This document shows positions 3,313 to 40,906 of a stretch of DNA of 64,000 bases, one piece after another. Positions within the stretch are counted from its first letter, which is position 1, and the number at the start of each line of letters is the position of its first letter. Below the pieces are notes generated by a model. It saw only the letters and a list, made by a program, of their open reading frames with translations, was not told the origin of the DNA and searched no databases. The DNA lies in the NCBI GenBank assembly GCA_034521595.1, contig JAXHMG010000003.1, positions 64,001 to 128,000 of the forward strand, in the 5' to 3' direction. The position numbers and the translations under genes were made by a program. Source of the DNA: Gemmatimonadota bacterium. GTDB taxonomy: Bacteria; Gemmatimonadota; Gemmatimonadetes; Longimicrobiales; Gaopeijiaceae.

Positions 3313-3669
3313 AGCAGCCCGTGGCAGAAGTTGGGTGGGCCGGACCCGTGCTGCGCCCGGGTGCCCCGGGAGCGCCACGGCCCCAGATCCTAGGCGCCAT
3401 GACGAAGGCATAGCCTTGAGCTGGGCACCGCGCGAAGCGTGGTCCGAGGAGTGGCAACGACGGAGATGGGGCCGTGCCGCCCCGGGCACCGCCGCGCCAG
3501 CGGTGGTCCGAAGGGCACAAGGGGACCAACGCTATCGCGTCGGTGCCCGCGGCATCATACTGCGTCATAGCTCCTCCCCGATGCTTTGGCATCGCATTCG
3601 TCGCTCTTCCTTGTCTGATATCCGCAAGACCCTTGTGCGCGGCCCACCCAACTTCTGCCACGGGCTGCT
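3313..3669. mobile_element. Non-autonomous TIR element (MITE-like), copy 1, opposite orientation to copies 2 and 3
   Basis: Perfect 30-bp terminal inverted repeat (3313-3342 / 3640-3669, AGCAGCCCGTGGCAGAAGTTGGGTGGGCCG). Intergenic, homologous to 36653-36930 and 40522-40906. Confidence 0.85.
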
Positions 3670-3683
3670 CGGGAACCGTCCCG

Positions 3684-4955
3684 TCACGCGGCGTCGGAAG
3701 ACCGGTCTCGTCGGGGCTCCGGCAGGAGGAACCACACGATGAGCCCCATCGTGAGCACGAAGACGGCACCGACGATCGTGTTCGACCTGTATCCGACCCC
3801 GGCGAAGAGCGGGCCGGCGATCGCGCCACCGAGCGCGAACCCGACTTGGCCGAGCGCGACCGTGAGGCTCATCAGCGATCCTCTGCGGTCGTCGCTCACG
3901 AGCGCGGTGAGCAGCGCCGAGAACGGGCTGATGCGCATCGCGACGAGCACCATCGTCAGGAAGAAGATGACGTACGCCGTCCAGAGGTTCGTGACCAGCG
4001 GTACCGTGAGGAGCATGACCACGGAGAGTCCGATGCAGGAGAGCAGGATCAAGCCTTTGCGCCCGATCCGGTCGGAAAGCTTCCCCGCTTGCGGGCCGGT
4101 CACGACGTTTGCGACCCCGCCGATCAGGAACATGAGCGCGATCTGGTTGCCGGTCGCTCCGATGTCCCGCTCGAGCCAGGTCGGTAGGTAGACCACGAAC
4201 ACCGAAACCCCGAGGAACATCATGAAGAACGCCGTTGCCGCCCATGCGATCTCGGCTCGCTTCAACATCGTGACGTAGTCTTCGATGGCCTTCTTGATGG
4301 AGAGGCGGTGCTGGCTCAGCTGCACGTCGGGCTGTGGCATGCGCAGGAAGAGCAGGAGCAGGGTGGCGGCCATCGTGATCGCGAAGAGGTAGAAGGGCGA
4401 GCGGAAGCCCCATCGCTCCGCCATGACGATGCCCATCGGGATCCCGATGATCTGTCCGAAGGCGGATCCGCTCATCACCCAGCCGGTGGCCCAGCCCCGA
4501 CGCTCGTACGGAAAGTAGTCGCCAATGTAGGAGACGGCCGCTCCGCTCAGGATGCCACCCGCGATCCCAGCGAAGATGCGCACGGCCAGGAACGAGACGT
4601 ACCCGGTCACGAAGCCGTGGAGCGAGAGCGCGAGCGTCATCGTGCCGGCGCCCATCATCAGGATGCGTCGCCGTCCGATCTTGTCGGAGATCGGACCCGA
4701 GATGATGGCGAACACACCGACCATGATCGAGTAGGCGGACACCAAAGTGCCGAGCACCGCGTCCGCGATCCCGAGCTGGTTGCCGATCATGGGCAGGATC
4801 GGCGAGATGATCATGATCTGGCTGGCCGACGAGAACACCAGCAGCCAGAGGGTGAAGACGACCAGCAGCGGGGACACCTCGGTCGCGTCGCCCGGGGGGG
4901 TGTCCGGGCCCGCCGGGGGCCGGACGGCTTCACCGCCGAGCTCGGCTCCGCTCAA
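3684..4955 (-). CDS. MFS transporter
   Basis: Multiple TM helices, motif A GPISDKIGRRR and GKLSDRIGRK. TTG start overlaps the upstream stop (TTGA); start uncertain. Confidence 0.9.
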   Translation of the reverse strand: MSGAELGGEAVRPPAGPDTPPGDATEVSPLLVVFTLWLLVFSSASQIMIISPILPMIGNQLGIADAVLGTLVSAYSIMVGVFAIISGPISDKIGRRRILMMGAGTMTLALSLHGFVTGYVSFLAVRIFAGIAGGILSGAAVSYIGDYFPYERRGWATGWVMSGSAFGQIIGIPMGIVMAERWGFRSPFYLFAITMAATLLLLFLRMPQPDVQLSQHRLSIKKAIEDYVTMLKRAEIAWAATAFFMMFLGVSVFVVYLPTWLERDIGATGNQIALMFLIGGVANVVTGPQAGKLSDRIGRKGLILLSCIGLSVVMLLTVPLVTNLWTAYVIFFLTMVLVAMRISPFSALLTALVSDDRRGSLMSLTVALGQVGFALGGAIAGPLFAGVGYRSNTIVGAVFVLTMGLIVWFLLPEPRRDRSSDAA

Positions 4956-5734
4956 CCCCCTTCGTTCCTGTCGACCCGCCCGGCGGCCCGCTGGGCCGTG
5001 GGCATCAGAACGAGCTGGAACACGTCCACGTGCTCGGGCGTGTTGGCCACGTAGAGCACCGCGTCCGCCACGTCGTCGCCCGACAGCGGGCGGGTGTCGG
5101 CGTAAACCTTCTTCGCCCGCTCTGCGTCTCCGTGGAAGCGGACCTCGCTGAACTCGGTTTCGGTCAGGCCCGGATCGACGCTGGAGACCCGCACCTTGGT
5201 GCCCAGCAGGTCCATGTTCATCCCTTCCGCGATCGCCCGCAGCCCGAACTTGGTGGCGTTGTAGACGGCCCCCTTCGGGTAGACCCAACGCCCGGCGATG
5301 CTCCCGATGTGGATGACGTGTCCACTGTTCCGCTCCACCATGTGCGGCAGGATCGCGCGCGACATGTAGAGGACTCCCTTGAGGTTGGTGTCGATCATGT
5401 CCTCCCAGTCGTCGATCGATCCCTCGTGGAGCTTGTCGAGACCCCGCGCCTTGCCGGCGTTGTTGACGAGGATGTCGGGGAGGAGCTCCAGCCGTTCGAG
5501 CGTGTTCACGTATTCGGCGACCTGGTCGCGGCTCGCCACGTCCACGCCGTGGGCGTTCGCTTCGACGCCGTGTTCCTTGCGCAGCTCCTCCGCCAGAGCC
5601 TCCACGCGCTCGAGCCGGCGGGCGGCGAGAAGGAGGTTCGCGCCCTGCTCGGCGAAGCGTCGCGCGCATGCTTCGCCGATTCCGGCGCTCGCTCCGGTGA
5701 TGAGGACGCGTTTTCCGATCAATCGATTGATCAT
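4952..5734 (-). CDS. Short-chain dehydrogenase/reductase, YdfG-like
   Basis: TGASAGIG, NNAG, YNATK, DPGLTETEFSEVRFHGD. Confidence 0.92.
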   Translation of the reverse strand: MINRLIGKRVLITGASAGIGEACARRFAEQGANLLLAARRLERVEALAEELRKEHGVEANAHGVDVASRDQVAEYVNTLERLELLPDILVNNAGKARGLDKLHEGSIDDWEDMIDTNLKGVLYMSRAILPHMVERNSGHVIHIGSIAGRWVYPKGAVYNATKFGLRAIAEGMNMDLLGTKVRVSSVDPGLTETEFSEVRFHGDAERAKKVYADTRPLSGDDVADAVLYVANTPEHVDVFQLVLMPTAQRAAGRVDRNEGG

Positions 5735-5860
5735 GGTGGTGATGGTTCGGTGAACGGGTTGGGGGGCGTCAGATTCGCCCCGGCTCATCCGCGACGCAAC
5801 CGTGGCGACACCGGCGGTGGCCGACGGCTCCGGAAGCCACTACCCTCCGGCCGTCACGCG

Positions 5861-7108
5861 ATGGCTCGGAGGAGCGACTTGGACAGGAAGCAGGTCGGCG
5901 CCTGGGCGCTGTACGATTTCGCCAACTCGGTGTTCCCCGCGGTCATGACGACCGCGGTGTTCCCGGTCTACTACATCACGGTGGTGGTCGCGGACGGGGG
6001 TGGAGCCGGCGAGTGGTGGTGGGGGCGTGCCGTCGCGCTGTCGGCGCTGATCGTGGCCGTGACCTCTCCGCTGTTGGGTGCGATCGCGGACCGCGGCGGT
6101 GCGCGGAAGAAGTTCATGTTCGGGTGGGTCGGCGTATGCGTTGCAGCCGTCGCCGCGATGACGACGCTCGAGGCCGGGATGGTGATCCCGGGGTTCGTCC
6201 TGTTCGTCGTCGCCAACGTCGGGTTCGAGGGGGCGAACGTATTCTATAACGCGTATCTGCCCGACATCGCGCCTCCGGAGCGGCGTGGCTTCGTCTCGGG
6301 GCTCGGTTTCGGGATCGGGTACCTCGGCTCGGCCGTCGGGCTCATGATGGCGATTCCGTTCGTCGACCGGATCGAGCTCGTCTGGCTGTTGGTGGCCGGC
6401 TTTTTCTTCGTCTTTTCGCTCCCCGCCTTTTTCTTCCTGCCCGAGGACCGGCCGACGGGAATCACGCTGCCCGCGGCGGCACGCTGGGGGTTCGGCAACC
6501 TCCGCGTGATCGTGAGCGAGGTCTGGGCGAACCGGGAGCTGCGGAAGTTCCTGCTGGCCTTCTTCTTCTATATCGACGGCGTGCTGACCATCATCGTCAT
6601 GGCCGGCGCGGTCGCGACGGAAACGTTCGGTTTCGACCAGCGCGGGACCATCGTCCTCTTCCTGATCGTGCAGTTCTCGGCCCTGGCGGGTGCGTTCGCC
6701 TTGGCGGGCCCGACCGACCGTTTCGGGCCCAAGCGGGTGCTGAGCGGGGTGATCGTGCTGTGGATCGCCACCGGCGTGTCCGCCTACTTCATCCAGGACG
6801 CCGCGGTTTTCTACGGCCTGGCGGTGGTCGCCGGACTCGGTCTGGGCTCGATCCAGTCGGCGAGCCGGGCGCTGATGGCTTCGCTCGTCCCCGAGGGCCG
6901 GGAAGCCGAGATGTTCGGCTTCTACGCTCTGTGCGGAAAGACGTCGTCGATCATCGGACCGACCCTGTTCGGATACGTGACGCTCCTGGCGGACGGCAAC
7001 CAGCGGCCCGGCTTCCTCGTTTTGACCGGGCTGTTCGTCGTCGGCCTCTTCCTGTTGCAACGGGTTCGGGATCCCGTGTCCGGTCGCGTCGAGACGGCCG
7101 GGTCGTGA
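5861..7108 (+). CDS. MFS transporter, UMF1/ATG22-like
   Basis: WALYDFANS, FYNAYLPDIA, GFGIGYLG, EMFGFYALCGK, multiple TM helices. Confidence 0.9.
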   Translation: MARRSDLDRKQVGAWALYDFANSVFPAVMTTAVFPVYYITVVVADGGGAGEWWWGRAVALSALIVAVTSPLLGAIADRGGARKKFMFGWVGVCVAAVAAMTTLEAGMVIPGFVLFVVANVGFEGANVFYNAYLPDIAPPERRGFVSGLGFGIGYLGSAVGLMMAIPFVDRIELVWLLVAGFFFVFSLPAFFFLPEDRPTGITLPAAARWGFGNLRVIVSEVWANRELRKFLLAFFFYIDGVLTIIVMAGAVATETFGFDQRGTIVLFLIVQFSALAGAFALAGPTDRFGPKRVLSGVIVLWIATGVSAYFIQDAAVFYGLAVVAGLGLGSIQSASRALMASLVPEGREAEMFGFYALCGKTSSIIGPTLFGYVTLLADGNQRPGFLVLTGLFVVGLFLLQRVRDPVSGRVETAGS

Positions 7109-7231
7109 CGGGCCGCGTCGCGCCGCGCACCGGCACGCGATGGCGCGTCGGCGGTCGGGGAGCGACCTTGGCGCGTCGGCGGGCGGGTGCCCGCGCTCTC
7201 GGCAGGCGATTCTCACTCAAGGAGGACGAAG

Positions 7232-7759
7232 ATGGTTTCGGGACGCGACCTCGGACGGGCACGGCCCCTGACACTGTGGGCGATCGCCGTGGCGGGCTCG
7301 GTGCTCGCCGGCTGTTCGATCGAGCCGCGCACCGACCGTGAAGAGTCGGCGGCCGACGGACCCGCTTCGGGTGCGCCCGACAAGGAGGTGGTCGACGTGC
7401 CCGGCGTCGCGAGCTTGCCGGTGTTCTCGTCAGCGATTCGAAGCGGAGATTTCATCTTCCTGTCCGGCGCCATCGGCACGGTGCCGGGCGAGGAGCTGCA
7501 GTTGGTCGAAGGAGGCATCGGGTCCGAGACGCGGCAAACCCTCGAGAACCTCAGTGACGTGATCGAGGCCGCGGGGGGGACGATGGAAGACATGGTGAAG
7601 TGCACGGTCTTCCTCGCGGATATGGACGATTACGAGGCCATGAACGAAGTGTATCTCGAGTTCTTCCCTTCGGATCCCCCGGCTCGCTCGGCGCTCGCCG
7701 CGGCGGGTCTGGCGTTCGACGCCCGGGTGGAGATCGAGTGCATCGCGGCGGCTCGTTAG
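7232..7759 (+). CDS. RidA/YjgF-family protein with lipoprotein signal
   Basis: GGAGG RBS, lipobox LAGC, FLSGAIG, VKCTVFL, MNEVY..FF...PPARS, VEIECIA. Confidence 0.88.
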   Translation: MVSGRDLGRARPLTLWAIAVAGSVLAGCSIEPRTDREESAADGPASGAPDKEVVDVPGVASLPVFSSAIRSGDFIFLSGAIGTVPGEELQLVEGGIGSETRQTLENLSDVIEAAGGTMEDMVKCTVFLADMDDYEAMNEVYLEFFPSDPPARSALAAAGLAFDARVEIECIAAAR

Positions 7760-7765
7760 CTGCGC

Positions 7766-9640
7766 TCAACCCCGGATCTCGGGAGCGGCGTCGTGAAAGG
7801 TGACCCGCCATACCCGGAGGTGCTCTTCCAGGCCGCGCACGTTCACTTCCAGGGACTGGAGCTCCGCTCCGAGCCGGAAGCACAGCTCGTCGACGCCCGG
7901 GTCCACCCGGACCGCATCGGAAAGGACGACATCGTTCCCGGCGGACACTGAGCCGAGGCGTGCGGCGATGTTGACGGTCGAGCCGAAGTAATCGAGTCGG
8001 TCGTTGAGCGTGACCGCGATACATGGGCCGTAGTGCACGCCCGCTTTCAACACGAGCGGGAGCTCCTTATCCGGGATCTCGCTGTCCGGGCGTCGCATCT
8101 CGGTCCCGCTCGCGAGTCGTGCTTGCGCCGTACGAACCGCCTCCATCGCATGTTGTGGCTCTTGGAAGACCGCCATGACCGCGTCGCCGATCGTCTTCAC
8201 GACCGCCCCTTCGTGCTCGCGCACGGCTTCGTCGAGCACTTCGAAGTGGCGCATCACACGCCTGTACGCGGGGGCGTCGCCGACGCGCCGATACATGCGC
8301 GTGGAGTCCTTCAGGTCGGTGAAGAGGATGGCGAGGCTACCGACGTTCATGAACGTGCCAGACCGTAACACCTCGTCGCTGAAGATGTCCCGAAAGTCCG
8401 CGAGCGCCGTGACCTCGGCGGCCGTTGCCGCGGTGTCCGCCCAGGCAATGCGCTCGATGTCGACGAGCACCTCCGAGTCCGTTTCGTTGTGGAGCGTGAC
8501 CTGGGCTCTCGGATGCACGGCCGAGTGGACCTCGCCCCAACCGCTCGGGAGGAGCTTGACCGTGACGTGCTCGACACCCTCCGTAGAGACCTCGAAGGCA
8601 GGACCGCCCGGCACGCCCCAGGCCCGCAACCGGTGGCGCCCGGGTTCCAGCACCCCGTGGACCGCCCGGCGCTCGGACGGCGCGAGGAGCTGTTGAACCT
8701 CGATGTGTGGCGTGATCTGGGGCCCGGCGACGCAAAATTCGGGAGCGTGAACCGGACGAATCGCCGCCGTGGGCCTGAAGGATACTTCAACCGAGTTGGC
8801 GAAATCGCGGGAAAACGTGACGTCACAGCTCTCGCAGTGGGTGCTCCCTTCGCGCATGCGGGCGAGCGACGTGACACGGTCTTTCGCCCCCAGGCAGCGA
8901 GGACAGATCACGTCCCACGTCAGATCGAGTAGGCCTGCGCGAGTGGCCTGCATGCAGGTGTGCAGCGTTTCACGGCGCTCGGTCCCCCATGCGTCCGCTC
9001 GCTCGTAGGGCCGGATCCGGGCGAGGCTCATCTCGTCGGCGGTGGCTACGTACCTTAGGATTTGCTCCGTGAGTTCCGGACGGACGCCTGTTTCGGCGAG
9101 GCGTTTCCCCGCCCGCCGTAGGCGAGGAAGCCGACGGCGGGGAAGCGCTTCGGGGGCATCCTGGGCATCGCTCTGTCCGACCACCTGTTCCGCGTACCTC
9201 TTGAAGGTACGCCCGAATGTGGCACGGCTGATCACACCGATCTGAATCGGAGTCGTGACGAGACCGAAGATGCCTCGTGGGCGGGCGTGCACCCGATAGG
9301 TGAGGTGCGTCCGGTGCGGACCCGCTTCCTCCAGGGTGGCGAGGACCCTCATCTCACGAAGCGGCCCCCGGCTGTACCGGCGGACGACTCCGAAGCGCCA
9401 CGGCTTCACCCACTCGAAGGGCAGCTCTTCCCACTCCAGGGTGACGCCCTTCACACGCAGATGCAGCTGTCGGCGTGCGTTGGTGGCGATCCGACCGTCG
9501 CTGGTGGGTTGCTCCTGGACGGGAGGCAACCCTACGTCGCGGTTGAAGCGGTTCGTGTCGGAGACGAGGGGCCACAGGGCTTCAGGCGATGCGGGCAGTG
9601 TCCAGGACCACTCGTACTCGAATTCACGAGGAAGCCCCAT
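7766..9640 (-). CDS. Class III adenylate/guanylate cyclase with SRPBCC-like and Cys-containing (DUF5939-like) N-terminal domains
   Basis: LFTDLKDST, VVKTIGDAVMA, DYFGSTVNIAARL, plus CPRC and CESC motifs. Confidence 0.88.
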   Translation of the reverse strand: MGLPREFEYEWSWTLPASPEALWPLVSDTNRFNRDVGLPPVQEQPTSDGRIATNARRQLHLRVKGVTLEWEELPFEWVKPWRFGVVRRYSRGPLREMRVLATLEEAGPHRTHLTYRVHARPRGIFGLVTTPIQIGVISRATFGRTFKRYAEQVVGQSDAQDAPEALPRRRLPRLRRAGKRLAETGVRPELTEQILRYVATADEMSLARIRPYERADAWGTERRETLHTCMQATRAGLLDLTWDVICPRCLGAKDRVTSLARMREGSTHCESCDVTFSRDFANSVEVSFRPTAAIRPVHAPEFCVAGPQITPHIEVQQLLAPSERRAVHGVLEPGRHRLRAWGVPGGPAFEVSTEGVEHVTVKLLPSGWGEVHSAVHPRAQVTLHNETDSEVLVDIERIAWADTAATAAEVTALADFRDIFSDEVLRSGTFMNVGSLAILFTDLKDSTRMYRRVGDAPAYRRVMRHFEVLDEAVREHEGAVVKTIGDAVMAVFQEPQHAMEAVRTAQARLASGTEMRRPDSEIPDKELPLVLKAGVHYGPCIAVTLNDRLDYFGSTVNIAARLGSVSAGNDVVLSDAVRVDPGVDELCFRLGAELQSLEVNVRGLEEHLRVWRVTFHDAAPEIRG

Positions 9641-9670
9641 CTCTCCTCCCCATCACGTTGCCTCGGATTC

Positions 9671-10144
9671 TCAAGAGGTCGAGTCCGAGGTCGCGACTCC
9701 CGCCTCGTCCAACACCGTCTGGAGGCTGTCGCGGAGCGCGTTGTGACGCTCGATCGTCGATCGACACGCGGCTTCGGCATTGCGCAGGCGCTCGACCCGG
9801 GCATCCCACGCATCGACCGAGTCGTTGTAGCGTTCGAACGACTCCATGTACTCGTCGTACTGGTCTTCCGGAACCCCGCGGGCGTCGAGCGCCTCGAAGC
9901 TATCCACCTGCGAGCGGAGCGACGTGATGACGTCGTCGAACTCGCGGAGGCGTGTCTCGGAGCTCTCGACGGTGCCCCTGCAGCGCTGGGCGGATGCCCG
10001 CGCCTGGAAGAGCTCGCTCCGGAGCCTGGTGATCTCCGACGAGACCCGTTGGCGCTCGAGGATCCGGTCGACACCCAGGAAGAGCAGGGCGGCCGCGCCG
10101 AGCGAGAGGAGGACCGGGAGCATCGAGCGGAGCTTCTGATTCAC
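9671..10144 (-). CDS. Hypothetical membrane-anchored coiled-coil protein
   Basis: N-terminal hydrophobic helix followed by charged heptad-rich sequence, GC3-biased codons. Confidence 0.7.
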   Translation of the reverse strand: MNQKLRSMLPVLLSLGAAALLFLGVDRILERQRVSSEITRLRSELFQARASAQRCRGTVESSETRLREFDDVITSLRSQVDSFEALDARGVPEDQYDEYMESFERYNDSVDAWDARVERLRNAEAACRSTIERHNALRDSLQTVLDEAGVATSDSTS

Positions 10145-10187
10145 CGTGCCCCACCCCGGTCTCGGAGGCGTCGCGGACGGACGTCTC

Positions 10188-11876
10188 TCACGGATCGACG
10201 GTGAATCCGAACATCATCCCGGCTTCCAGGTGCTCGGCGATGTGGCAGTGAAGCATCCATTCGCCCGGATTGGACATCTCGACCAGGAGGTCCATGGTGG
10301 AGCCGACGGGAACGATCGCCGTGTCCTTCCACACCAGGTTCTCGTTCCGGACCCCGTCCATCGCGAGCACGAGGAACCGCTGGCCGTGGATGTGGATCGG
10401 ATGGTTCATGGGGTGGAAGGAGTCGGGTGAGTTGAAGATCCGGATCTTCACCACGTCTCCGACGTCGAAGCGCCAGTCGATCTCGTCGTTCTCGGCGCCC
10501 GTATCGCGGTCGCGCAGGATCCAGGTGACCTGTTCGCCGGTCGAGAGCCAGTTCATCATCGGCATCCCGTCGTTCCACTCGACCGGTGGATAGTAGAGCG
10601 TGTCGGCCTCCATGGAGAGCATGATGGAGGGATGGAGGTTCCGGACCCGCACGGTCGTCTCCAGCTCGTGGTCGGGCTCTCGGTCGAACCACGGACGAAA
10701 CGCCTCGATCTCCTCCTGCACGGCCTCGTGCTCTCTCAACGTGGTGAACGCCTCGGAGAGGTCGGGCTCGGCGGGTTCGTCGGCGACCGTCACGAGCGAG
10801 AGCGTGTCCACGTGCGGGTAGAATTCACCGCGGAAGTGATTGACGGCCTGGATGGTGTTCGCGATGGCGACCTCACCTGGATCGTCGAACATCACGTCCA
10901 CCACGTAGCGCTCCGCGGGTCCGATGACCACGGACTCGGTCCATTGCTCGCGCTCGTAGCGGCCGATGTCCGAGGCGACGATCTTCACCCGAGCGCTCCC
11001 GAACGTGACGTTGAACGTGCGGGTGTTGGCGACGTTCGTGAGGAAGAAGCGCACCACTTCCCCCCGCTTCACGTCGAGGGTGTGCTCGGTCTCGCCATTG
11101 ACCATCATCACGTTGCCGAAGCGACCCATGAGCGCGTGCGTGGCCGCGCTCTCGCCCCACGGTAGGGCCCCCTCGTCGTCCACGAGCAGATCGTCGAGCA
11201 CGAAGACCTCCTCCCGGTGGGAGGGCCCGTAGTATTCCGGGTCCGGCGACGTCACGTGCAGGTTGCCGAACAGTCCGAGGTCCTGTTGGACGTCTTCGCG
11301 GACGTGCGGGTGGTACCAAAACATGCCCGCATCGGGAACATGGACCTCGTAGGTGAAGCTCTCACCCTGCTCGATCGGGTCCTGGGTCAGCTCCGGTACG
11401 CCGTCGTACCGATTCTCGAGACGGATGCCGTGCCAGTGGATGGTCGTCGGCATCTGGATGTCGTTCGTTACTTCGACCACGAGCGTCGCGTCCTGGGGCG
11501 CCTGGATCAGGGGACCCGGGTACTGCTCGTTGTAGCCGTACATGACCATCTCGTGGCCTTCGATCGTGCGGCGCACCATCGACACCGAGATGTCGAGGGT
11601 GTCCCCGTCCTCCATCTCCACCACCTCGGATGGACGCGCCTCCGGGAACATCGAGGGATCCATGCCCTCGCCCGGCAGGAACGGCTCCACGACCGGGGTC
11701 GCGGTCTCGAGTCCGGGGAGCATCGGCATGTTCGGGTCCATGGGGACCATGCGCCAGCCGCCCTCCATGTCCATGCCTTCCATCTCGTGGCCCTCGTGCT
11801 GAGCCGCGGAGACGGACGGCATACACGCCAGGAGCGCCGCGACGGCGAGGGCTCGGCATACGACAGTGCGTGCCAC
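10188..11876 (-). CDS. Multicopper oxidase
   Basis: HWHG, WYHPH, HPIHIHG, HCHIAEHLEAGM copper motifs, signal peptide, Met/His-rich N-terminus. GTG start 1 nt after the upstream stop. Confidence 0.95.
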   Translation of the reverse strand: MARTVVCRALAVAALLACMPSVSAAQHEGHEMEGMDMEGGWRMVPMDPNMPMLPGLETATPVVEPFLPGEGMDPSMFPEARPSEVVEMEDGDTLDISVSMVRRTIEGHEMVMYGYNEQYPGPLIQAPQDATLVVEVTNDIQMPTTIHWHGIRLENRYDGVPELTQDPIEQGESFTYEVHVPDAGMFWYHPHVREDVQQDLGLFGNLHVTSPDPEYYGPSHREEVFVLDDLLVDDEGALPWGESAATHALMGRFGNVMMVNGETEHTLDVKRGEVVRFFLTNVANTRTFNVTFGSARVKIVASDIGRYEREQWTESVVIGPAERYVVDVMFDDPGEVAIANTIQAVNHFRGEFYPHVDTLSLVTVADEPAEPDLSEAFTTLREHEAVQEEIEAFRPWFDREPDHELETTVRVRNLHPSIMLSMEADTLYYPPVEWNDGMPMMNWLSTGEQVTWILRDRDTGAENDEIDWRFDVGDVVKIRIFNSPDSFHPMNHPIHIHGQRFLVLAMDGVRNENLVWKDTAIVPVGSTMDLLVEMSNPGEWMLHCHIAEHLEAGMMFGFTVDP

Positions 11877-11877
11877 G

Positions 11878-31076: not shown

Positions 31077-31080
31077 CGGC

Positions 31081-32012: not shown

Positions 32013-32024
32013 CGAGCCGCGCCT

Positions 32025-33155: not shown

Positions 33156-33391
33156 GAGCGGCTCCGGGTTCAGGGGCGTGGCTCGCGTCGGCGTCTCGAT
33201 GCTCCGGCGCGTGGTCTGGGGACAATCGATAAGGGTTCGAAGGCCCGCACGCGAACGCGGCGAGCCGGCGGAGCCTGCGCTCGTCCCGCGGGGCCTTGTT
33301 CCCGGGGAGGGGGCGCGTCACACTTCTCCGCTGACAATGCCGCGGCCGGCCGCGGCGGCCTGGAACACATTCGCACGCACCGGAGAGCGAC

Positions 33392-33742
33392 ATGATCGAC
33401 AACCTCGATTGGCGGTACCACCGCCCGGGCTGACAGAGCTGCAAGAAGACGCAAGAGTTTCTTGCGACGCACGGCATCGGCGACGGCCACCTCCGGAGCG
33501 CGACCGCCGACCCCATCGAGGGTCGGGCCGCGCTCGAGCTCCTGGAGGGCATCGACGAGCTCTGGGTGGCGAAGGGGCGTAAGATCGTGCGCTATGACCT
33601 CCGGTCCGAGCGGCCTTCGGACGATGAGCTCCTCGGTTCCATGCTGGGTCGGTCGGGCAAGCTGCGGGCACCGACGAGCCGGGTCGGGAGGCTCCTTCTG
33701 GTCGGATACAACCAGGACTTGTTGGAGGAAGCTCTTCTCTGA
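33392..33742 (+). CDS. ArsC/Spx-like thioredoxin-fold selenoprotein (Sec at codon 14, UxxC); not in the ORF track
   Basis: GGAG RBS. MIDNLDWRYHRPG-TGA-QSCKKTQEFL...VAKGRKIV...LGRSGKLRAPTSRVGRLLLVGYNQDLLEEALL, 116 aa by readthrough, filling an otherwise empty gap. Confidence 0.85.
33441..33465 (+). promoter_or_regulatory. Candidate bacterial SECIS hairpin
   Basis: GCAAGAAGAC-GCAAGA-GTTTCTTGC stem-loop starting 7 nt after the in-frame TGA (33431-33433); the apical loop begins with G. Confidence 0.65.
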
Positions 33743-33963
33743 CTTGACTTCTCGCCCTTTAGAAGCGAGCCTTGTCCCCAACCGGAACCGGACTCTGTTC
33801 GGTCCACGAAAATACGTAAGCGAAGGCGGTGGCTTTCGAGAGTCATTCGCCTATGAGCATGTGGCCGAGGTGGCCACACCCCGCGCGGGGTGACCGCGCA
33901 AGTATGGTGTCGGGAAGTACGGATCATCCGAAACTCCGACCATCGAACATCCAAGGGAGCGCG

Positions 33964-34176
33964 ATGATGCGTACCAGAGGAACTGTGAAGTGGTTCAATG
34001 ACCAGAAGGGCTTCGGCTTCATCAGCCCGGAGGACGGAAGCAAGGACTGCTTCGTCCACCACAGCGCCATTCAGATGGAGGGCTTCAAGAGCCTGACCGA
34101 AGGCGCCACCGTCGAATTCGACGTGGTCGAGGGTGCCAAGGGCCCAGCCGCGGAGAACGTGGTGGAGCTCTCGTAG
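33964..34176 (+). CDS. cspA: Cold-shock protein
   Basis: GTVKWFN..KGFGFI (RNP1), FVHHSAI (RNP2). Paralog name is generic. Confidence 0.95.
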
Positions 34177-34201
34177 GGTCATAGGTACCACGGTACCTCT
34201 G

Positions 34202-34241
34202 CGGGCCGTCCCGGAGTCACTCCGGGACGGCCCGTTTTTTT
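34202..34241 (+). terminator. Rho-independent terminator
   Basis: CGGGCCGTCCCGGAG-TCA-CTCCGGGACGGCCCG followed by T7. Confidence 0.92.
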
Positions 34242-34277
34242 GTGCTCAACACTCGCCATCTTGGCCGTGTCTTTATA

Positions 34278-34296
34278 GTGGTATATGATATACCAC
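34278..34296. promoter_or_regulatory. Candidate Rrf2/NsrR-type operator
   Basis: Perfect 9-1-9 palindrome GTGGTATAT-G-ATATACCAC, 32 nt upstream of the Rrf2 ATG. Confidence 0.7.
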
Positions 34297-34328
34297 GTTT
34301 GGCACACCACTTTAGCGAGTCGTCCTCG

Positions 34329-34778
34329 ATGAGGCTTTCCAGGTTTACCGATATCGGGCTCCGAGCCCTCATGTATATCGCCGCGCAGGGCCGCAACGTC
34401 TCTGCGCGAGAGGTGGCGGACGCCTACGGCGTCTCACGCGACCACGTGACCAAGAGCATGCAAGGTCTCGTGGCACTCGGGGCATTGAGCTCGACACCGG
34501 GAAGGAACGGGGGGTTCGCGTTGGATGCGGACCCATCGACGCTCCGCCTCGGAGATCTCGTGCGCAGCCTCGAGCCGAGCCTGGCGATCGCGGAGTGCTT
34601 CGGAGAGGATTCCACCTGCCCGCTCACGGACGACTGTGCGCTGGCGTCCGCCCTGTTCCAAGCACGCGAGGCGTTCTTCGTCTCGCTTGATCGCTACACC
34701 TTGGCCGATCTGGTCTCCGGGACGTATCAAGGCCTGGTTCAGATCGCTCCGCGGGAGCTGGAGGTGGCTCGTGCGTAA
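34329..34778 (+). CDS. Rrf2-family Fe-S regulator, NsrR-like
   Basis: MRLSRFTDIGLRALMY, GRNGGFAL, three Cys in ECFGEDSTCPLTDDCAL. Confidence 0.9.
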   Translation: MRLSRFTDIGLRALMYIAAQGRNVSAREVADAYGVSRDHVTKSMQGLVALGALSSTPGRNGGFALDADPSTLRLGDLVRSLEPSLAIAECFGEDSTCPLTDDCALASALFQAREAFFVSLDRYTLADLVSGTYQGLVQIAPRELEVARA

Positions 34779-35190
34779 CGTCCGTGACGGCGTCACCGAG
34801 CCCCGCATCCGCGCCATGGTCGAGACGTTCTACGAACGCATTCGCGAAGACGAGGCGCTCGGACCGATCTTCGAAAGCCACATCGGGGGCACCTGGCCGG
34901 AGCACATGGACCGGATGGTCGACTTCTGGTCCAGCGTCCTGCTCGGCACCGCTCGGTTCCGCGGCAATCCGGCCGCGCGACACCATGCCATGGCCGAGCT
35001 CCGGCCCGAGCATTTCGACCGTTGGCTGGAGCTCTTCGAAGAAGTCCTCGGGGAGATCTTCGCGGAGCCCGATGCCACGGATATCCTCTGGCGTGCCCGA
35101 CGCATGCGCCACGTGCTCGACACCGGCTCGTCTCAGGATGCCACTTCCTCACACCTCACAGCTCTTTCCACGACGAGGGCAACACGATGA
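34771..35190 (+). CDS. Group III truncated hemoglobin
   Basis: VETFYERIR.D..LGPIF, WPEHM..MVDFWSSVLL, GNP...H, HFDRWLELF. Confidence 0.92.
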   Translation: MRNVRDGVTEPRIRAMVETFYERIREDEALGPIFESHIGGTWPEHMDRMVDFWSSVLLGTARFRGNPAARHHAMAELRPEHFDRWLELFEEVLGEIFAEPDATDILWRARRMRHVLDTGSSQDATSSHLTALSTTRATR

Positions 35191-36593
35191 TCATGACTTC
35201 GGAAAACCGATCGGAAATCAGGCCCGGTGCGGTCACTTCCCGAAGCCGGAGCAACCTGCTGGCGGCTATCGGGATCGGGCTCGCGGGGACGCTGTTCTCG
35301 GTCGTCCCCGCCGCGGGGCAGAGCTCCGGGGGAGCGTACGAGCATGTCGACGACGAAGGCTCTCCGGTCGACCCCATCGCGATCCTTCAGAAGCAGCTCG
35401 ACTCGGACGAGGCCGTGCTCGACTTCAAGGACGAGCAGGGCTATCTGGTCTCGCTCCTCGAGGCCCTCGACATCCCGGTTTCGTCGCAGGGGCTGATCTT
35501 CTCGAGGACGAGCCTGCAGACCAACCTGATCACGCCGTGGACACCCCGAGCCGTCTACTACAACGACGACGTGTACATCGGGTACGTGCAGGACAGCCCG
35601 ATCCTCGAGATCGCTTCCATCGATCCGGACGACGGCGGAGTGTTCTACACCCTCGAACAGGATCCGGACAGCGAGCCCGAGTTCAAGGAAGAGGGCACGA
35701 CGTGCTTGATGTGCCACGAGTCGCGGTCGGTGACCGACGGGGTGGCGGGCGTCATGGTGCGCTCGGTCGTCGTGGACCGGTTCGGCTATCCCATCTCGCC
35801 GTTGCACGAAGGCTCGACGACCGACCGCACACCGCTGGACCGCCGCTTCGCGGGGTGGTACGTCACCGGGACCCACGAAGGCGGCCCGCACGCGGGGAAC
35901 GCTTATGCCCCGGTGCTCAGCCACGAAGTTTCGGATGTGTCGGCTTACCTCGAGGAGTTCGATGTCAATGCCGACGGCAACGTCGTCGACCTGGAGGGTC
36001 GCTTCGACTCCGAGCCGTATCTCACCGCGCACAGCGACATCGTGAGCCTGATGGTGCTGACGCACCAGACCCGGGTGCACAACCTCATCACCGTCGCGCA
36101 CGAGGCGGCCAAGGAAGCCGTTGGTGGAGCGGCGATGTTGGCCCGGATGCGCGACGGTTCGATCCCCACCCCCGACATTCCGTCGAGGGCCCAGGTTCGT
36201 ATCAATGGAGCGGTGGAGCGGATGGTGCGCTCGATGCTCTTCGCCCGGGAGGCGCCGCTGCCGGGGCCGGTCGAGGGCACGTCGGGCTTCGAGGAAGAGT
36301 TCGAGGCGCGAGGCCCGTTCGACGACGAGGGGCGTTCGCTCCGCGAGTTCGACCTCGAGGAGCGTCTGTTCCGTTATCCGATGAGCTTCCTCATCTATTC
36401 GGACGCATTCGTGACGTTGCCGGACCTGATCAAGGAACCGTTCTATCGCCGCGTGGCGGAGATCCTGGACGGCCGGGACAGGACCGGGGAATACGACCAT
36501 CTCGACGAGTCCGATCGGACGGCCATTCGGGAGATCCTCGAGGCGACCAAGCCGGAATTCCTGGAGTTCACCGAGGAAGAGACGGCCCGATGA
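35187..36593 (+). CDS. Exported hypothetical protein with one CxxCH heme-c motif
   Basis: ATGA-coupled to the globin gene, signal-like helix, CLMCH, FSRTSLQ, RFAGWYVTG, SDIVSLMVL.HQ. Confidence 0.82.
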   Translation: MIMTSENRSEIRPGAVTSRSRSNLLAAIGIGLAGTLFSVVPAAGQSSGGAYEHVDDEGSPVDPIAILQKQLDSDEAVLDFKDEQGYLVSLLEALDIPVSSQGLIFSRTSLQTNLITPWTPRAVYYNDDVYIGYVQDSPILEIASIDPDDGGVFYTLEQDPDSEPEFKEEGTTCLMCHESRSVTDGVAGVMVRSVVVDRFGYPISPLHEGSTTDRTPLDRRFAGWYVTGTHEGGPHAGNAYAPVLSHEVSDVSAYLEEFDVNADGNVVDLEGRFDSEPYLTAHSDIVSLMVLTHQTRVHNLITVAHEAAKEAVGGAAMLARMRDGSIPTPDIPSRAQVRINGAVERMVRSMLFAREAPLPGPVEGTSGFEEEFEARGPFDDEGRSLREFDLEERLFRYPMSFLIYSDAFVTLPDLIKEPFYRRVAEILDGRDRTGEYDHLDESDRTAIREILEATKPEFLEFTEEETAR

Positions 36594-36597
36594 GGGA

Positions 36598-36642
36598 ATG
36601 GAGGGCCGGTCCGTGCCCGAGCGCGCGGGGCCGGCCCTCCAT
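36598..36642. terminator. GC-rich hairpin after the Rrf2 operon
   Basis: 12-bp stem ATGGAGGGCCGG / CCGGCCCTCCAT, no T-tract. Confidence 0.45.
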
Positions 36643-36652
36643 CGCCTGTGGT

Positions 36653-36930
36653 TAGCAGCCCGTGGCAGAAGTCTGGTGGGTCGCGCACGAGGGTCTTGCG
36701 GATATCGTACAAGGAAGAGCGACGAATGCGATGCCAAAGCATCGGGGAGGAGCTATGACGCCGTACGATGCCGCAACCCCCTCGTGCCCTTCGGGTTGGG
36801 GCGGCACGGCCCCATCTCCGTCGTTGCCACTCCTTGACGTAGCTCAGGGCTATGCCTTCGTCGTGTCGCCTAGGGTCTGGGGCCGTGGCGCTCCCAACGC
36901 GACCCACCAGACTTCTGCCACGGGCTGCTA
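36653..36930. mobile_element. Non-autonomous TIR element, copy 2 (shortest form, no inserted units)
   Basis: Perfect 33-bp TIR TAGCAGCCCGTGGCAGAAGTCTGGTGGGTCGCG, bounded by TTAG...CTAG, between convergent genes. Confidence 0.85.
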
Positions 36931-36947
36931 GTGAAGGCGCTTTGCCG

Positions 36948-37373
36948 CTACACCGGCCAGTCCTGGAGAATCCGCTCGGTCTCCTCGGCGTGCTCGCTCT
37001 CGTCCCGAACCATGTCCTCGAGCTGCACGGAGAGACCCTTGTCCCCGTAGGCGTCGGCCTCCTGGGCGCGCTTCGTGTAGTCTGCGACAGCTTTCCGTTC
37101 GGCCGTGAGGACGGCTTCGAGCATCTCCCGATTGGTGCTCGCCGCAGCGATCTCACGGGGGCGGGTCGTCGGCTCGCCCCCGAGGGCGACGATCTTGTTG
37201 GCGAGGAACTGAGCGTGCGTCTGCTCGTCGGCGACCTCCGCGAGGAAGAACTCGGAGAGCTGGGGACGGTAGGGCCCGGACGCCTTGGCCGCGTACGTCA
37301 GATATTGGATGATGGCCGAGAGCTCTCCCGTCAGGTCTTCGTTCAGCTTGTCGATCAGGGTCTGCTTGTTCAC
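36948..37373 (-). CDS. Ferritin-like (bacterioferritin-related) protein
   Basis: GGAGG RBS, GELSAIIQY, DEQTHA, AERKAV..Y, DESEH di-iron pattern. Confidence 0.88.
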   Translation of the reverse strand: MNKQTLIDKLNEDLTGELSAIIQYLTYAAKASGPYRPQLSEFFLAEVADEQTHAQFLANKIVALGGEPTTRPREIAAASTNREMLEAVLTAERKAVADYTKRAQEADAYGDKGLSVQLEDMVRDESEHAEETERILQDWPV

Positions 37374-37461
37374 GGAGTTCCTCCCTCCTCGGTGGGATAG
37401 CGGTCCTGGGACCTCGAGCATTCTCGAAAGGTGATGCGCTCGGGGGGATCGGGCCAGCCCG

Positions 37462-38406
37462 TCACCCGTCCTGCCCGGACGGTGTCTCGTCGCCTTCGTC
37501 CTGCTCGAAGAGCTCGGTCGTGAGATACCGTGCCGCCGAATCCGGAGCGATGCAGGCGACCCTGTGCCCCGGTCCCAGCTCACGCGCTACCTCGAGCGCG
37601 TTCCAGACGATCGCGCCGCTGCTCATCCCTACGAACAACCCTTCCTCGCGAGCGAGCCGCCGGGCCAGGGGAAAGGCGTCTTCCTCCCAGGCAGTGCGCA
37701 CCTCGTCGATCACCGAGCGGTCCAGATTAGTGGGAATGAACCCGGGGCCCATCCCCTGAAACTGGTGCGTGCCGCGCTCTTCTCCGGAAAGGACGGCGCT
37801 CCGCGCGGGCTCCACGGCGACCACCCGGACCTCCTCGAGACGTTCCTTTAGATAGCGGCCGACACCCGAAATCGTGCCGCCGGTCCCGCTCCCGTAGACG
37901 AACGCATCGATGCGCCCGTCCATTTGCGTCCAGATCTCGGGAGCGGTGACTTCGTAGTGCGCCTGCGGGTTCGCCGGATTTTCGAACTGATTCGGTAGGA
38001 ACGCCCCCGTTCGATCGCGGATTTTTTCCGCTTCCGCGATGGCCGCGAGCATGCGGAGCTCCGGGTCGGTCAGCACGAGCTCCGCGCCGTACGCCAGGAG
38101 CGTCTGCTTCCGCTCGAAGCTCATCGTCGAGGGAAGGCAGAGGGTCAGGTGGTAGCCCCGTGCCGCCGCGACCTGAGCCAAGCCGATGCCCGTGTTGCCC
38201 GACGTCGGCTCGACGATCCGGCCCCCGGGCTCGAGCACCCCTCGGCGTTCGGCGTCCAGCACCATGCCGAGGGCGGGACGATCCTTGATGGAGCCGCCCG
38301 GGTTCATGCCCTCCAGCTTGACCCAGACCTCTGCTTCGTCCGGACCGATGACCCGGCGGAGTCGGACCATGGGTGTGTTGCCGATGAACGCGTCGATGGT
38401 CGTCAC
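37462..38406 (-). CDS. cysK: Cysteine synthase
   Basis: IGNTPMV, KLEGMNPGGSIKDR, TSGNTG, GTGGT, QGMG. Confidence 0.92.
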   Translation of the reverse strand: MTTIDAFIGNTPMVRLRRVIGPDEAEVWVKLEGMNPGGSIKDRPALGMVLDAERRGVLEPGGRIVEPTSGNTGIGLAQVAAARGYHLTLCLPSTMSFERKQTLLAYGAELVLTDPELRMLAAIAEAEKIRDRTGAFLPNQFENPANPQAHYEVTAPEIWTQMDGRIDAFVYGSGTGGTISGVGRYLKERLEEVRVVAVEPARSAVLSGEERGTHQFQGMGPGFIPTNLDRSVIDEVRTAWEEDAFPLARRLAREEGLFVGMSSGAIVWNALEVARELGPGHRVACIAPDSAARYLTTELFEQDEGDETPSGQDG

Positions 38407-38533
38407 GTCTGGAGCGTTCCTGTCGCGGAGCCCGCTCGTGAGGTGCCACGCGAACGGCAAGCAGGCTATGATGAATGGGTCCTCCGGCACCCGGCCGGTG
38501 GCGTCGATGCTTCAGCCGGAGCTGCCTCCAAAC

Positions 38534-39196
38534 GTGACACGCGCGACGCTCGTTCCCAAGACCGTCTTGCCCGCGATCCTCTTCGTTGCGCTCGCGTGCG
38601 TTGGCGACGAGGGAGCCTCGGACGCGTCGGCCGCGGCCACGGTGCCCGATTCGTTCGACGTGGTGCTGAGCACGAGCGGCGGAGAAATCGTGATGCGGAT
38701 GCACCGTGCCTGGTCGCCGAGAGCGGTGGATCGGGTGTACGAGCTCGTGAGCTCGGGCTTCTACGACGGAGCTCGCTTCTACCGGGTGAACGAGCAATTC
38801 GCCCAGTTCGGCTTCAGTGGTCGACCGGAGCGCGACACGGTGTGGATGGAGCGGCGGCTGCCCGACGAGCCGGTCCGTGCGTCCAATGTTCGGGGCACGG
38901 TGGCGTTCGGCCGAGCCGGGCCGAACTCGCGCAACTTCGTGTTGTTCGTGAACCTGGTGGACAACACCTTTCTCGATACGTGGTCGGGCGACGGTGTCGA
39001 CGGATTTCCGCCGGTCGGTCGTGTGGAGCGGGGCCTGGAGGTGGCGGAAAACCTGTACTCGGGTCACGGAGATGCGATCGTGGCCATGGAAGACTCGATT
39101 CTCGCACGGGGCAACGCGTTCCTCGATCGCCGCTTCCCCGGGTTGGATTCGATCGTAGGCGCCGAAATCACTCGAAGCTGGACAGACAGCCCATGA
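38534..39196 (+). CDS. Cyclophilin-type peptidyl-prolyl isomerase, lipoprotein; start uncertain
   Basis: ALAC lipobox, GFYDGARFYRV, AQFG, NVRGTVAF, FVNLVDN. Confidence 0.87.
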   Translation: MTRATLVPKTVLPAILFVALACVGDEGASDASAAATVPDSFDVVLSTSGGEIVMRMHRAWSPRAVDRVYELVSSGFYDGARFYRVNEQFAQFGFSGRPERDTVWMERRLPDEPVRASNVRGTVAFGRAGPNSRNFVLFVNLVDNTFLDTWSGDGVDGFPPVGRVERGLEVAENLYSGHGDAIVAMEDSILARGNAFLDRRFPGLDSIVGAEITRSWTDSP

Positions 39197-39543
39197 CGTC
39201 GCCGGATCATCTCAGTGAGGATCAGCTCGCCGCCCTCCGAGCGGAGCTCGACCGGGAGCTCGCGAAGCTGGAACAGAGCATGGAGGTCACCGACGAGGCG
39301 CTCCGGCCGGTGCAGTTGGATCAGACCGCCGTGGGGCGGCTCTCGCGCATCGACTCGTTGCAGAACCAAGGGCTGACCAAGAACCTGCGGGAGCGAGAGC
39401 AGGCCAAGCTCGGGATGCTCGTGGAAGCCCTCAAGCGTATCGAGGCCGGCCGGTACGGGATCTGCGAGGAATGCGGAGGGCCGATTCCCTTCGAGCGATT
39501 GATCGTGATGCCGGAAACACCGACGTGCTCGGCCTGCGCTTGA
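39193..39543 (+). CDS. DksA/TraR C4 zinc-finger protein
   Basis: Coiled coil, ALKRIE.G.YGICEECG.PI..ERL...P....CSAC. Confidence 0.9.
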   Translation: MTSPDHLSEDQLAALRAELDRELAKLEQSMEVTDEALRPVQLDQTAVGRLSRIDSLQNQGLTKNLREREQAKLGMLVEALKRIEAGRYGICEECGGPIPFERLIVMPETPTCSACA

Positions 39544-39610
39544 AGGCCGGGGCCGAGAGCGAGGGGGCGCTTCTACGCCTCGCGGACGCCTCATGGCCCG
39601 CGACCCCGGC

Positions 39611-40285
39611 TCATCCGTCGACGAGCGTCGCGCTCACGATCCGCGTGAGATCGGGAAACTCCTGGTCGAGGTAGGCGTTCCCTCGGGCCTCGACCATGGC
39701 CTGATAGGGGCCTTCGCCCCTCGGGGGACCGTCGCCGTACCCGTCATGGAACCGGTCGACCACGTCCATCCCTTCCACCACCTCGCCGACGGGGGCGAAG
39801 TGGTTTTCGTCCAGCTGCGGGTTGTCAGCGAGATTGATGAAGACCTCGGTGGTGCGGGTGTGACGCCCTCCCTTGGCGAAGGTCACGCGTCCGCGGGTGT
39901 TTTCCCGCACCACGGGGTCGTCGACGAGGTACTCGGTCTTCCACGCCTGATTCACGTACGGGTCTCCGTTGAGCCCGAACTGGGCGACGAAGCCGTCCAC
40001 GACGCGGTATACGCGCGTGTCGTCGAAGAACCCGCTCTTCACCAGGTTGTAGAACCGATCGGCGCCGAGCGGTGCCCAGGCGCGGTGCACCTCCACCACG
40101 AAGTCACCCGCGCTCGTCTCGAATCGCGCGCGGAAGGTTTCGGGCGCTCGCTCGTCGAAGCGTTCCGGGCGAAGCAGGGGGTTCGGCCGCTGGGCGTCCG
40201 AGGTGTCGGCCTCACCCGAGCAGGCGAGAGCGACGATGGCGGTGGCCCACAGTGGGGTGCGGCGAAGGATGGGGGGAGCAAGCAC
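39611..40285 (-). CDS. Cyclophilin-type peptidyl-prolyl isomerase, lipoprotein
   Basis: ALAC lipobox, WAPLGADRFYNLV, YRVVDGFVAQFG, RTTEVFINL. Confidence 0.9.
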   Translation of the reverse strand: MLAPPILRRTPLWATAIVALACSGEADTSDAQRPNPLLRPERFDERAPETFRARFETSAGDFVVEVHRAWAPLGADRFYNLVKSGFFDDTRVYRVVDGFVAQFGLNGDPYVNQAWKTEYLVDDPVVRENTRGRVTFAKGGRHTRTTEVFINLADNPQLDENHFAPVGEVVEGMDVVDRFHDGYGDGPPRGEGPYQAMVEARGNAYLDQEFPDLTRIVSATLVDG

Positions 40286-40521
40286 TCGGATCTCCGGACG
40301 TGGAAAACACCAGTGGAGGATGTGGGTCTGGGAAGGCGGTCCGTCAAGGTTGGCATCAACTGGCGCTCCCGGACCGTTCGGTGCCGTCCCGTTCTACGAC
40401 GGGCTGCTCGGAGCGCCGTATGGAGCACATTCGCCCGCATGACGTAGTACCGTGTGAGCCCAGGCTACGAGGACCTTTATCCGACTCGATGAATATGTGA
40501 ACCGTGGCGCGCATACAGAGT

Positions 40522-40906
40522 TAGCAGCCCGTGGCAGAAGTCTGGTGGGTCGCGCGACCACCGCTGCGCGGCGGTGCCCGGGTCTTGCGGATATCGTACA
40601 AGGAAGAGCGACGAATGCGATGCCGAAGCATCGGGGAGGAGCTATGACGCCGTACGATGCCGCGGGCACCGACGCGATAGCGTTGGTCCCCTCGTGCCCT
40701 TCGGACCACCGCTGGCGCGGCGGTGCCCGGGGCGGCACGGCCCGACCCACGCCCTCCGGGCGTGGGTGCCCCCCGTCGTTGCCACTCCTTGACGTAGCTC
40801 AGGGCTATGCCTTCGTCGTGTCGCCTAGGGTCTGGGGCCGTGGCGCTCCCGGGGCACCCGGGCGCAGCACGGGTCCGACCCACCAGACTTCTGCCACGGG
40901 CTGCTA
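40522..40906. mobile_element. Non-autonomous TIR element, copy 3 (longest, five inserted units)
   Basis: Perfect 31-bp TIR, bounded by TTAG...CTAG, between divergent genes. Confidence 0.85.

Follow-up and report, generated by a model that had tools for sequence, protein, structure and literature searches.

Hairpin units of 22 to 28 nt nested in a superfamily of structured miniature transposable elements of the Gaopeijiaceae

The 64,000-nt stretch of a Gemmatimonadota genome (family Gaopeijiaceae) analyzed here (assembly GCA_034521595.1, contig JAXHMG010000003.1, positions 64,001 to 128,000 of the forward strand; referred to as the window) carries three copies of a MITE (a miniature transposable element with inverted repeats), two of which hold very short nested units of the form GGGCACC-hairpin-GGTC, 22 to 28 nt in length. 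These units are confined to structured MITEs of one core-bearing superfamily within this family of bacteria, and each of them replaces 3 to 6 nt of a loop, linker, or helix end. The reading that we favor, with confidence that is evenly balanced, is that they constitute a micro-hairpin family comparable to the repetitive extragenic palindromes (REPs) and the small dispersed repeats (SDRs), which repeatedly colonized the loops and linkers of this one MITE superfamily as single-stranded hairpins. A first-pass annotation of the window had proposed a very small mobile hairpin, and part of that idea stands, as the units form modules that have probably moved over evolutionary time; they are, however, neither free nor linked to an HUH enzyme, and precedents for them exist.

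The three MITE copies are delimited by the 19-nt word AGCAGCCCGTGGCAGAAGT, which occurs six times in the window as three inverted pairs, against 0.01 occurrences expected, and these pairs span positions 3313 to 3669 (357 nt), 36654 to 36929 (276 nt), and 40523 to 40905 (383 nt). Copy 1 (3311 to 3671, plus strand; 19-mers of the terminal inverted repeats, or TIRs, at 3313 to 3331 and 3651 to 3669; alignments A1 and A2) holds four units, copy 3 (40521 to 40907, minus strand) holds five, and copy 2 (36652 to 36931, minus strand) holds none and serves as the empty reference for all six unit sites, here labeled A to F. The three copies had previously been aligned by hand, and MAFFT reproduced that alignment, with all nine units exactly where they had been placed and in both orientations: sites A, D, and E are common to copies 1 and 3, site B is filled in copy 1 alone, and sites C and F are filled in copy 3 alone.

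In copy 1, the units lie at site A (3343 to 3366, minus strand; interior CGGGCGCAGCACG; 36.8 bits with the covariance model described below), site B (3423 to 3444, plus strand; 22 nt with interior GCGCGAAGCGT; 24.4 bits), site D (3484 to 3508, plus strand), and site E (3524 to 3548, minus strand), the last two being recovered by both the pattern and the model. The model also recovers those of copy 3, at site F (40556 to 40579, minus strand; also seen in the alignment, and one loop base away from the site D unit), site E (40664 to 40688, plus strand; also present in an 83-nt contig of public run X1), sites D (40704 to 40728, minus strand) and C (40744 to 40771, minus strand; with a 10-bp stem), both of which are additionally supported by the fold, and site A (40852 to 40875, plus strand; also found by the pattern). 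The corresponding empty sites of copy 2, as read from the MAFFT alignment on the plus strand, are ACGA at site F (36687 to 36690), AACC at site E (36775 to 36778), GGTT at site D (36794 to 36797), which pairs with the AACC of site E in a local hairpin, ATCT at site C (36814 to 36817), ACGT at site B (36837 to 36840), and AACG at site A (36896 to 36899).

Each unit of the window stands in place of 3 to 5 nt of copy 2. As first described, ACGA, AACC, GGTT, and ACGT are swapped cleanly for units, and no target duplication accompanies the replacement; at sites A and C, 4 to 5 nt are replaced together with one adjacent change. The lengths of the three copies agree with this arithmetic, as copy 1 exceeds copy 2 by 81 nt (96 nt of units minus 15 to 16 nt replaced) and copy 3 exceeds it by 107 nt (126 nt of units minus 19 to 20 nt replaced). 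That the empty sites might be scars of excised units was considered and rejected, since AACC, ACGT, and the others are not derivable from unit ends. Two resemblances noticed by eye alone, one between the AAC targets and integron core sites and the other between GGGCAC/GGTCC and restriction sites, were dropped. Within the window, the pattern GGGCACC-N4-24-GGTC has 20 matches, against 2.60 ± 1.61 (maximum of 7) in 100 shuffles; nine of these are the units, and 11 lie elsewhere in the window.

The units behave as one family at the level of their fold. Each consists of GGGC followed by a stem-loop closed by ACC/GGT and a final C, and alignment A5, with 27 units, shows no variation in the fixed ends. 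Among 17 hand-picked units, 99.3% of the 136 stem cells pair, compared with 85.4 ± 1.9% in shuffles (none of 500 as high), and sliding the partners along these units leaves 27 to 41% of the cells paired. When the set is extended to 49 distinct units (89 matches in eight genomes), in an alignment fitted to the covariance model and hence favoring pairing, 99.0% of 387 cells pair, and 57 cells are changed on both sides, compared with 16.5 ± 3.1 in shuffles (0 of 500). Both the A5 alignment and the stem counts thus support the proposal that the units are homologous modules of one hairpin family, whose ends are fixed and whose stems co-vary. On the strand that reads GGGCACC...GGTC, the 49 units contain 37 G.U or U.G cells versus four non-pairs. 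As these wobbles lie on the unit's own strand, and as units of both orientations occur within one MITE, the constraint is that of the unit and not that of a MITE transcript, which points to a single-stranded form of the unit itself. The pairing kept on the unit's own strand also fits the earlier suggestion of a folded single-stranded substrate. In the folded single strand of copy 3, the D and E units pair into one long hairpin (-34.5 kcal/mol, compared with -9.2 kcal/mol in the empty state), and opposed A and F units pair across the TIR stem.

Additional insight is gained when occupancy is followed through the source genome (G000; 3.49 Mb in three contigs, 67 to 69% G+C), for which occupancy and backbones were read by eye from tool alignments of 19 MITE copies. 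Nine copies have no site filled. The others hold a unit at F (L009); at A, degenerate, and E (L003); at D and E, the latter degenerate (L005); at A, D, and E (L002); at A, B, D, and E (copy 1); at A, C, D, and E (L008 and L001); at A, C, D, E, and F (copy 3); at A, B', C, D, and E (L010); or at A, B', and C together with one unit that joins site D straight to the right TIR (L016, G000:C3:642850-643290), where about 170 nt are deleted between near-identical D and F units. The copies fall into two backbone subfamilies, each with empty and filled members, and markers in the backbone, at distances of only 2 to 30 nt, do not follow the units, all four combinations being seen. Copy 3 is a case in point, as it consists of the backbone of copy 2, from which it differs by one substitution, plus five units identical to those on other backbones; the two copies share the same orientation and lie 3.6 kb apart.

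Outside the MITEs, the units are not seen. A covariance model built from the 17 units and applied to the 3.49-Mb genome with a cutoff of E ≤ 1 gave 33 matches, every one of them inside one of 11 MITE copies. The idea of an element moving freely about the genome is therefore not borne out, and the placement of all 33 matches shows that there is no free dispersal. The plain pattern has 209 matches genome-wide, near the chance rate of the window shuffles, and the well-formed pattern hairpins outside the MITEs are few and weak.

The comparison with other genomes carries the case for repeated placement. Strong model matches are present in three genomes of the same genus (G002, 41; G003, 9; G004, 6) and in four from other genera of the family (G015, 5; G009, 3; G022, 3; G007, 2), while beyond these there were single matches at noise level only, some of them among the 17 other genomes of the family that were searched, and 100 loci (719,475 bases) from other lineages that carry the same TIR gave only two weak matches. 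All unit contexts read in the relatives are MITE-like, and some belong to elements that have the conserved interior, or core, of the MITE together with one of three other kinds of TIR. A 26-nt unit with the interior GCGGCCGAAGGCCGT is identical in G000 (L016), G003 (L190), G002 (L211), and G009 (L192), within 40-nt flanks that are strongly diverged; it occurs twice in the G003 element, as a mirror pair in both arms, and sits at a different, new site in the G009 element. Similarly, the 22-nt site B unit of copy 1 recurs in identical form at site C of that same G009 element, where AGAT is again replaced (24.4 bits). Site E contains three different interiors across three genomes, and site F is occupied by a D-type unit in this MITE family and by a C-type unit in another TIR family. 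In G007 (L196), units occupy three further sites in the right half, one of them replacing the apical TTTG loop of a conserved CGATGC/GCATCG hairpin and another replacing ATAT. Altogether, at least 10 unit sites are known, six in G000 and at least four more in its relatives.

It is difficult to account for these data across genera unless units were placed repeatedly and independently. It had been recognized from the outset that the units might instead be ancestral at fixed positions, and within G000 this description does fit, as sites are fixed and sequences are site specific; across genera the situation differs, in that the identical unit at another site, the swapped variants, and the 10 or more sites support independent insertions.

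The element that hosts the units shows the features of a MITE, with TIRs of about 30 nt, a length of 260 to 385 nt, many copies, and no transposase gene inside. In addition to the 19 alignable copies, G000 contains one copy with these TIRs at C3:802816 and a further one with other TIRs (L017, C3:1321400-1321900, around C3:1321.5k). Of the 19 aligned copies, 17 have TA on either side, and the first base inside the ends co-varies (G...C or A...T), for which reason we read the TA as a putative duplication. The MITE is itself strongly structured: the single-strand folds of copies 2 and 3 reach -176.8 kcal/mol (z of -11.6) and -245.9 kcal/mol (z of -10.8), respectively, and the consensus fold of 10 unit-free copies comprises 96 pairs, 19 of which are changed on both sides, with its G.U pairs on one strand. 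No Rfam family was found on the elements even at E ≤ 10; the sole Rfam match in the window at gathering score is a tRNA gene at 57801 to 57875. The core is also paired with at least three other TIR types (L176, L186 to L192, L198, and L211, as well as L017), and some core-bearing elements hold it as two inverted copies, which shows a modular exchange of TIRs and cores between MITE families. The MITE is missing from the copy 2 locus in five of six same-genus genomes (gaps of 56 to 198 nt), and the insertion of copy 2 is accordingly young.

The TIR is more widespread than the units. Its exact word is present in more than 118 stretches of other genomes, mostly metagenome-assembled genomes (MAGs) labeled Acidobacteriota (Thermoanaerobaculia, Terriglobia, Bryobacterales, and Vicinamibacterales) and Planctomycetota; a match in M. 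colombiense falls inside a coding region and was discarded as due to chance. With respect to an autonomous partner, G000 yielded five solo TIR matches and no transposase frame with matching ends, and an IS630-type DDE_3 domain had no match in the searched genome. Two DDE_Tnp_1 matches were rejected as partners of the MITE, as the IS5-like element to which they belong has other ends. This insertion sequence of about 830 bp (in L184, G000:C3:10789-14175, at about 1112 to 1943; TIR GGSCTGTTAACACTATCG, CTAG flanks) is unrelated to the MITE ends. Two further observations concern the surroundings of the copies in the window: a GC-rich hairpin (GGAGGGCCGG...CCGGCCCTCC, 36591 to 36650) that resembles a terminator stem follows a stop codon directly and precedes copy 2, and copy 1 starts 13 nt past the stop of a frame on the minus strand (3684 to 5669).

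As for an enzyme acting on the units themselves, the first-pass annotation had pointed to a possible HUH, REP-associated tyrosine transposase (RAYT), or TnpA(Y1) gene. Y1_Tnp (PF01797) had no match in G000 and none in any of the eight unit-bearing genomes; its matches fell in seven of the 41 genomes searched, and none of these seven carries units. Genome completeness ranged from 78 to 98%. The HUH proposal is rejected on this basis, and a Y1/HUH transposase encoded by these genomes is excluded as the inserting enzyme.

When these results are placed together, a mechanism can be proposed. Over evolutionary time, units would have been copied again and again into new places of these MITEs, each acting as a folded single strand, with a few target bases lost and none duplicated. 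A unit once placed would then multiply passively through transposition of its host MITE. For the data within G000, the best explanation is a combination of descent, MITE transposition, and conversion sparing hairpin loop-outs; as such, the mosaic of presence and absence in G000 may mainly reflect descent and gene conversion between MITE copies, in which conversion would homogenize backbone bases and leave the hairpin loop-outs untouched. Opposed units, whether D and E or A and F across the TIR stem, could lengthen the stems of the folded MITE. Mirror copying by palindrome correction (E from D, and F from A) was also tried as a source of such pairs and rejected, given that F resembles D more than it does the complement of A; for D and E, which have 10 of 14 interior bases alike, it is possible.

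Several observations weigh against this favored reading. Within G000, each site has its own unit variant, the same on at least three backbones, and such site-specific variants would be predicted by simple descent and not by repeated insertion from a pool. The replaced bases have no common motif (AACC, AACG, ACGT, AGAT, TCGT/ATGT, TTTG, and ATAT) and their length varies from 3 to about 10 nt, so that they yield no clean rule for the chemistry. The searches gave no candidate enzyme: neither Y1_Tnp nor DDE_3 was matched, and the insertion sequence that holds the two DDE_Tnp_1 matches has different ends. Filled and empty states were not seen side by side at any orthologous locus, the MITE of copy 2 being itself missing in the five same-genus genomes noted above. 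Neither excision nor insertion was seen in the run contigs, which had no excision joint at copy 3 but cannot show rare variants. Convergence could, in principle, produce identical hairpins of this short, GC-rich kind at two sites, and the pairing of the 49-unit set carries the bias of the alignment from which it was counted.

It could also be speculated, more boldly, that the units represent a new class of micro-transposon, in which a hairpin of about 25 nt, complete in itself, moves in single-stranded form, enters unpaired loops or linkers of folded MITEs, and is swapped for about 4 nt in a cut-and-replace reaction without duplication, served by an enzyme not yet linked to transposition. We consider this extension tentative and, on balance, unlikely.

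Of the explanations that dispense with mobility, one that we likewise judge unlikely holds that the units are structural expansion segments, in other words, helix extensions of a folded RNA or single-stranded DNA module that arose by a few internal duplications and were then inherited, lost, or shuffled by recombination between MITE copies. It would account well for the fixed sites and site-specific variants within G000 and for the same filled states in sister species, and yet copies 2 and 3, with backbones a single substitution apart, differ at five sites, and the identical 26-nt unit turns up in MITE families with far-diverged flanks and at a different site. Similarly, a host interior that is structured and co-varying, in which D faces E and A faces F and the central hairpin is strengthened from -9.2 to -34.5 kcal/mol, is what helix extension would lead one to expect; units of opposite orientation within one MITE nevertheless each keep their G.U-type wobbles on their own strand and not on the folded strand of the MITE, and 10 or more sites share one set of fixed ends.

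A rival that we find still more doubtful is homing-like conversion of cassettes, in which units would spread only by templated repair from a copy filled at the same site, with loop-outs escaping mismatch repair, and would reach rare new sites by illegitimate, microhomology-guided repair, without any dedicated mobility function. That palindromic loops resist mismatch repair is established in yeast, and the free combination of unit presence with backbone polymorphisms 2 to 30 nt away, like the composition of copy 3 and its proximity to copy 2 in the same orientation, conforms to such a process, although conversion tracts would need to end within 2 to 6 nt of a unit. The deletion in L016, which extends from the unit at site D as far as that at site F, is likewise what recombination between units predicts. 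What this explanation leaves unaccounted for are the identical ends at all of the new sites and the fact that units never arrive outside MITEs by the same illegitimate route.

Finally, an artefact of assembly or alignment, or a set of chance matches, might be entertained because repeats break short-read contigs here, but this is refuted for practical purposes by the 20 pattern matches against 2.6 expected, the 33 of 33 model matches in MITEs, and the recurrence of the same units in seven other genomes and in contigs of public runs. In particular, the 83-nt contig of run X1 crosses unit E and part of unit D of copy 3 with no differences, which makes an assembly artefact unlikely, and loose ends at unit borders in the run contigs agree with the empty alleles of other copies.

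Comparison with described systems places the units, on our favored reading of a colonizing micro-hairpin family, closest to REPs and SDRs. Di Nocera et al. describe REPs as tagged with GTAG or CGTC, report CGTC REPs without a dedicated transposase, and give cases inserted within palindromes in A. variabilis (GTAG-15), T. roseum (GTAG-23), and H. neapolitanus (CGTC-1) (PMC3733652). REPs and the REP doublets forming hairpins (REPINs) associated with RAYTs resemble the units in being imperfect palindromes, of 20 to 40 nt compared with 22 to 28 nt, in bearing on one end a short conserved tag that stays unpaired, in their G.T-rich stems, and in often forming inverted pairs that fold into a larger hairpin. 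In contrast, the tag is GGGC in 27 of 27 aligned units and neither of the two REP tags given in that survey (PMC3733652). REPs are also numerous, extragenic, and mostly independent of other repeats, whereas the units number about 33 per genome, all in one MITE superfamily; none of the eight unit-bearing genomes yielded a RAYT/Y1 gene, and the units replace a few target bases. Since tag, copy number, dispersal, and RAYT association all differ, the units may be described as REP-like in their working and not as members of the REPs.

A second precedent is found in Nostoc, whose SDR4 to SDR6 are reportedly repeat modules of 21 to 27 nt, proposed to be mobile by Elhai et al. in 2008 (Genome Res 18:1484), and whose SDRs are said to be nested in larger repeats. 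SDR5 is a 21-nt module inserted precisely into the highly iterated palindrome HIP1 (PMC4390886, PMC13756078, and PMC5861425), between its third and fourth bases (PMC4390886), and SDRs are known only from the Nostocaceae, which are heterocystous cyanobacteria (PMC5861425). The very small module size and the precision of insertion are similar in the two. SDRs differ in that the units have no sequence likeness to them and belong to a host of 67% G+C whose TIR relatives lie in Acidobacteriota, Planctomycetota, and similar MAGs; the units also occur in MITEs alone and take the place of target bases.

Short GC-rich palindromic modules at defined positions within sequences that are themselves structured or repeated, regarded as mobile with no known enzyme, also include the inserts of about 70 bp at fixed internal sites of enterobacterial repetitive intergenic consensus (ERIC) elements and the GC clusters and double-hairpin elements of fungal mitochondria, all of which, unlike the units, are larger or reside in organelle genomes. 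To our knowledge, neither GGGCACC/GGTC ends nor confinement to one MITE superfamily has been described for ERIC-type inserts or GC clusters. The IS200/IS605 insertion sequences and palindrome-associated transposable elements (PATEs) resemble the units in that folded single strands are used, hairpins are recognized, and no target duplication is made. IS200/IS605 elements, however, need TnpA(Y1), which is missing in the unit-bearing genomes, insert on the 3' side of a single fixed sequence of four or five nucleotides and leave the target bases in place, whereas unit targets differ (AACC, AACG, ACGT, AGAT, TCGT, ATGT, TTTG, and ATAT), and carry two different subterminal hairpins per element where the units have one. 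The first-pass view that no such system had been described was consequently too strong, with REPs nested in palindromes (PMC3733652) and the 21- to 27-nt SDRs of Nostoc as close precedents. No description of GGGC-tagged hairpins confined to MITEs was found in full-text searches of open-access papers, supplements aside.

A different nested cassette is seen in Terriglobia copies of the same MITE. It is about 29 nt long, reads (G)GGC(C)ACCGA-SG-[7-nt loop]-CS-GAGGCC-GCRGG, contains tandem G.A pairs, and occurs in MAG loci L094:2180-2222, L103:4072-4202, L079:4853-4983, L082:3551-3595, L122:7817-7859, L132, and L134; two other Terriglobia copies (L080 and L109) are without it. The cassette occupies two sites in opposite orientations, between which its inner pair differs in a compensatory way, and its ends, GGGC(C)ACCGA...GAGGCC, resemble GGGCACC...GGTC. 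One Terriglobia copy additionally contains two tandem 24-nt hairpin repeats (GCGCCGRCCCGAAGYCGCGAAGAA, L079:4712-4759) that are missing from L109. If the tentative micro-transposon interpretation were true, and the Terriglobia cassette a relative, the class would be ancient and widespread in Acidobacteriota.

Were the units to prove only inherited expansion segments, they would represent a tidy but ordinary case of modular MITE evolution. As they stand, they offer a natural experiment on the way in which a structured mobile element gains helices as it grows, as well as a test of whether hairpin loop-outs escape gene conversion in bacteria. If, on the other hand, they are truly mobile, they would be among the smallest mobile DNAs known and would amount to a parasite of a parasite, hairpins living only inside MITEs, and their replacement of target bases, instead of duplication, would fit none of the transposition chemistries compared here (DDE and HUH).

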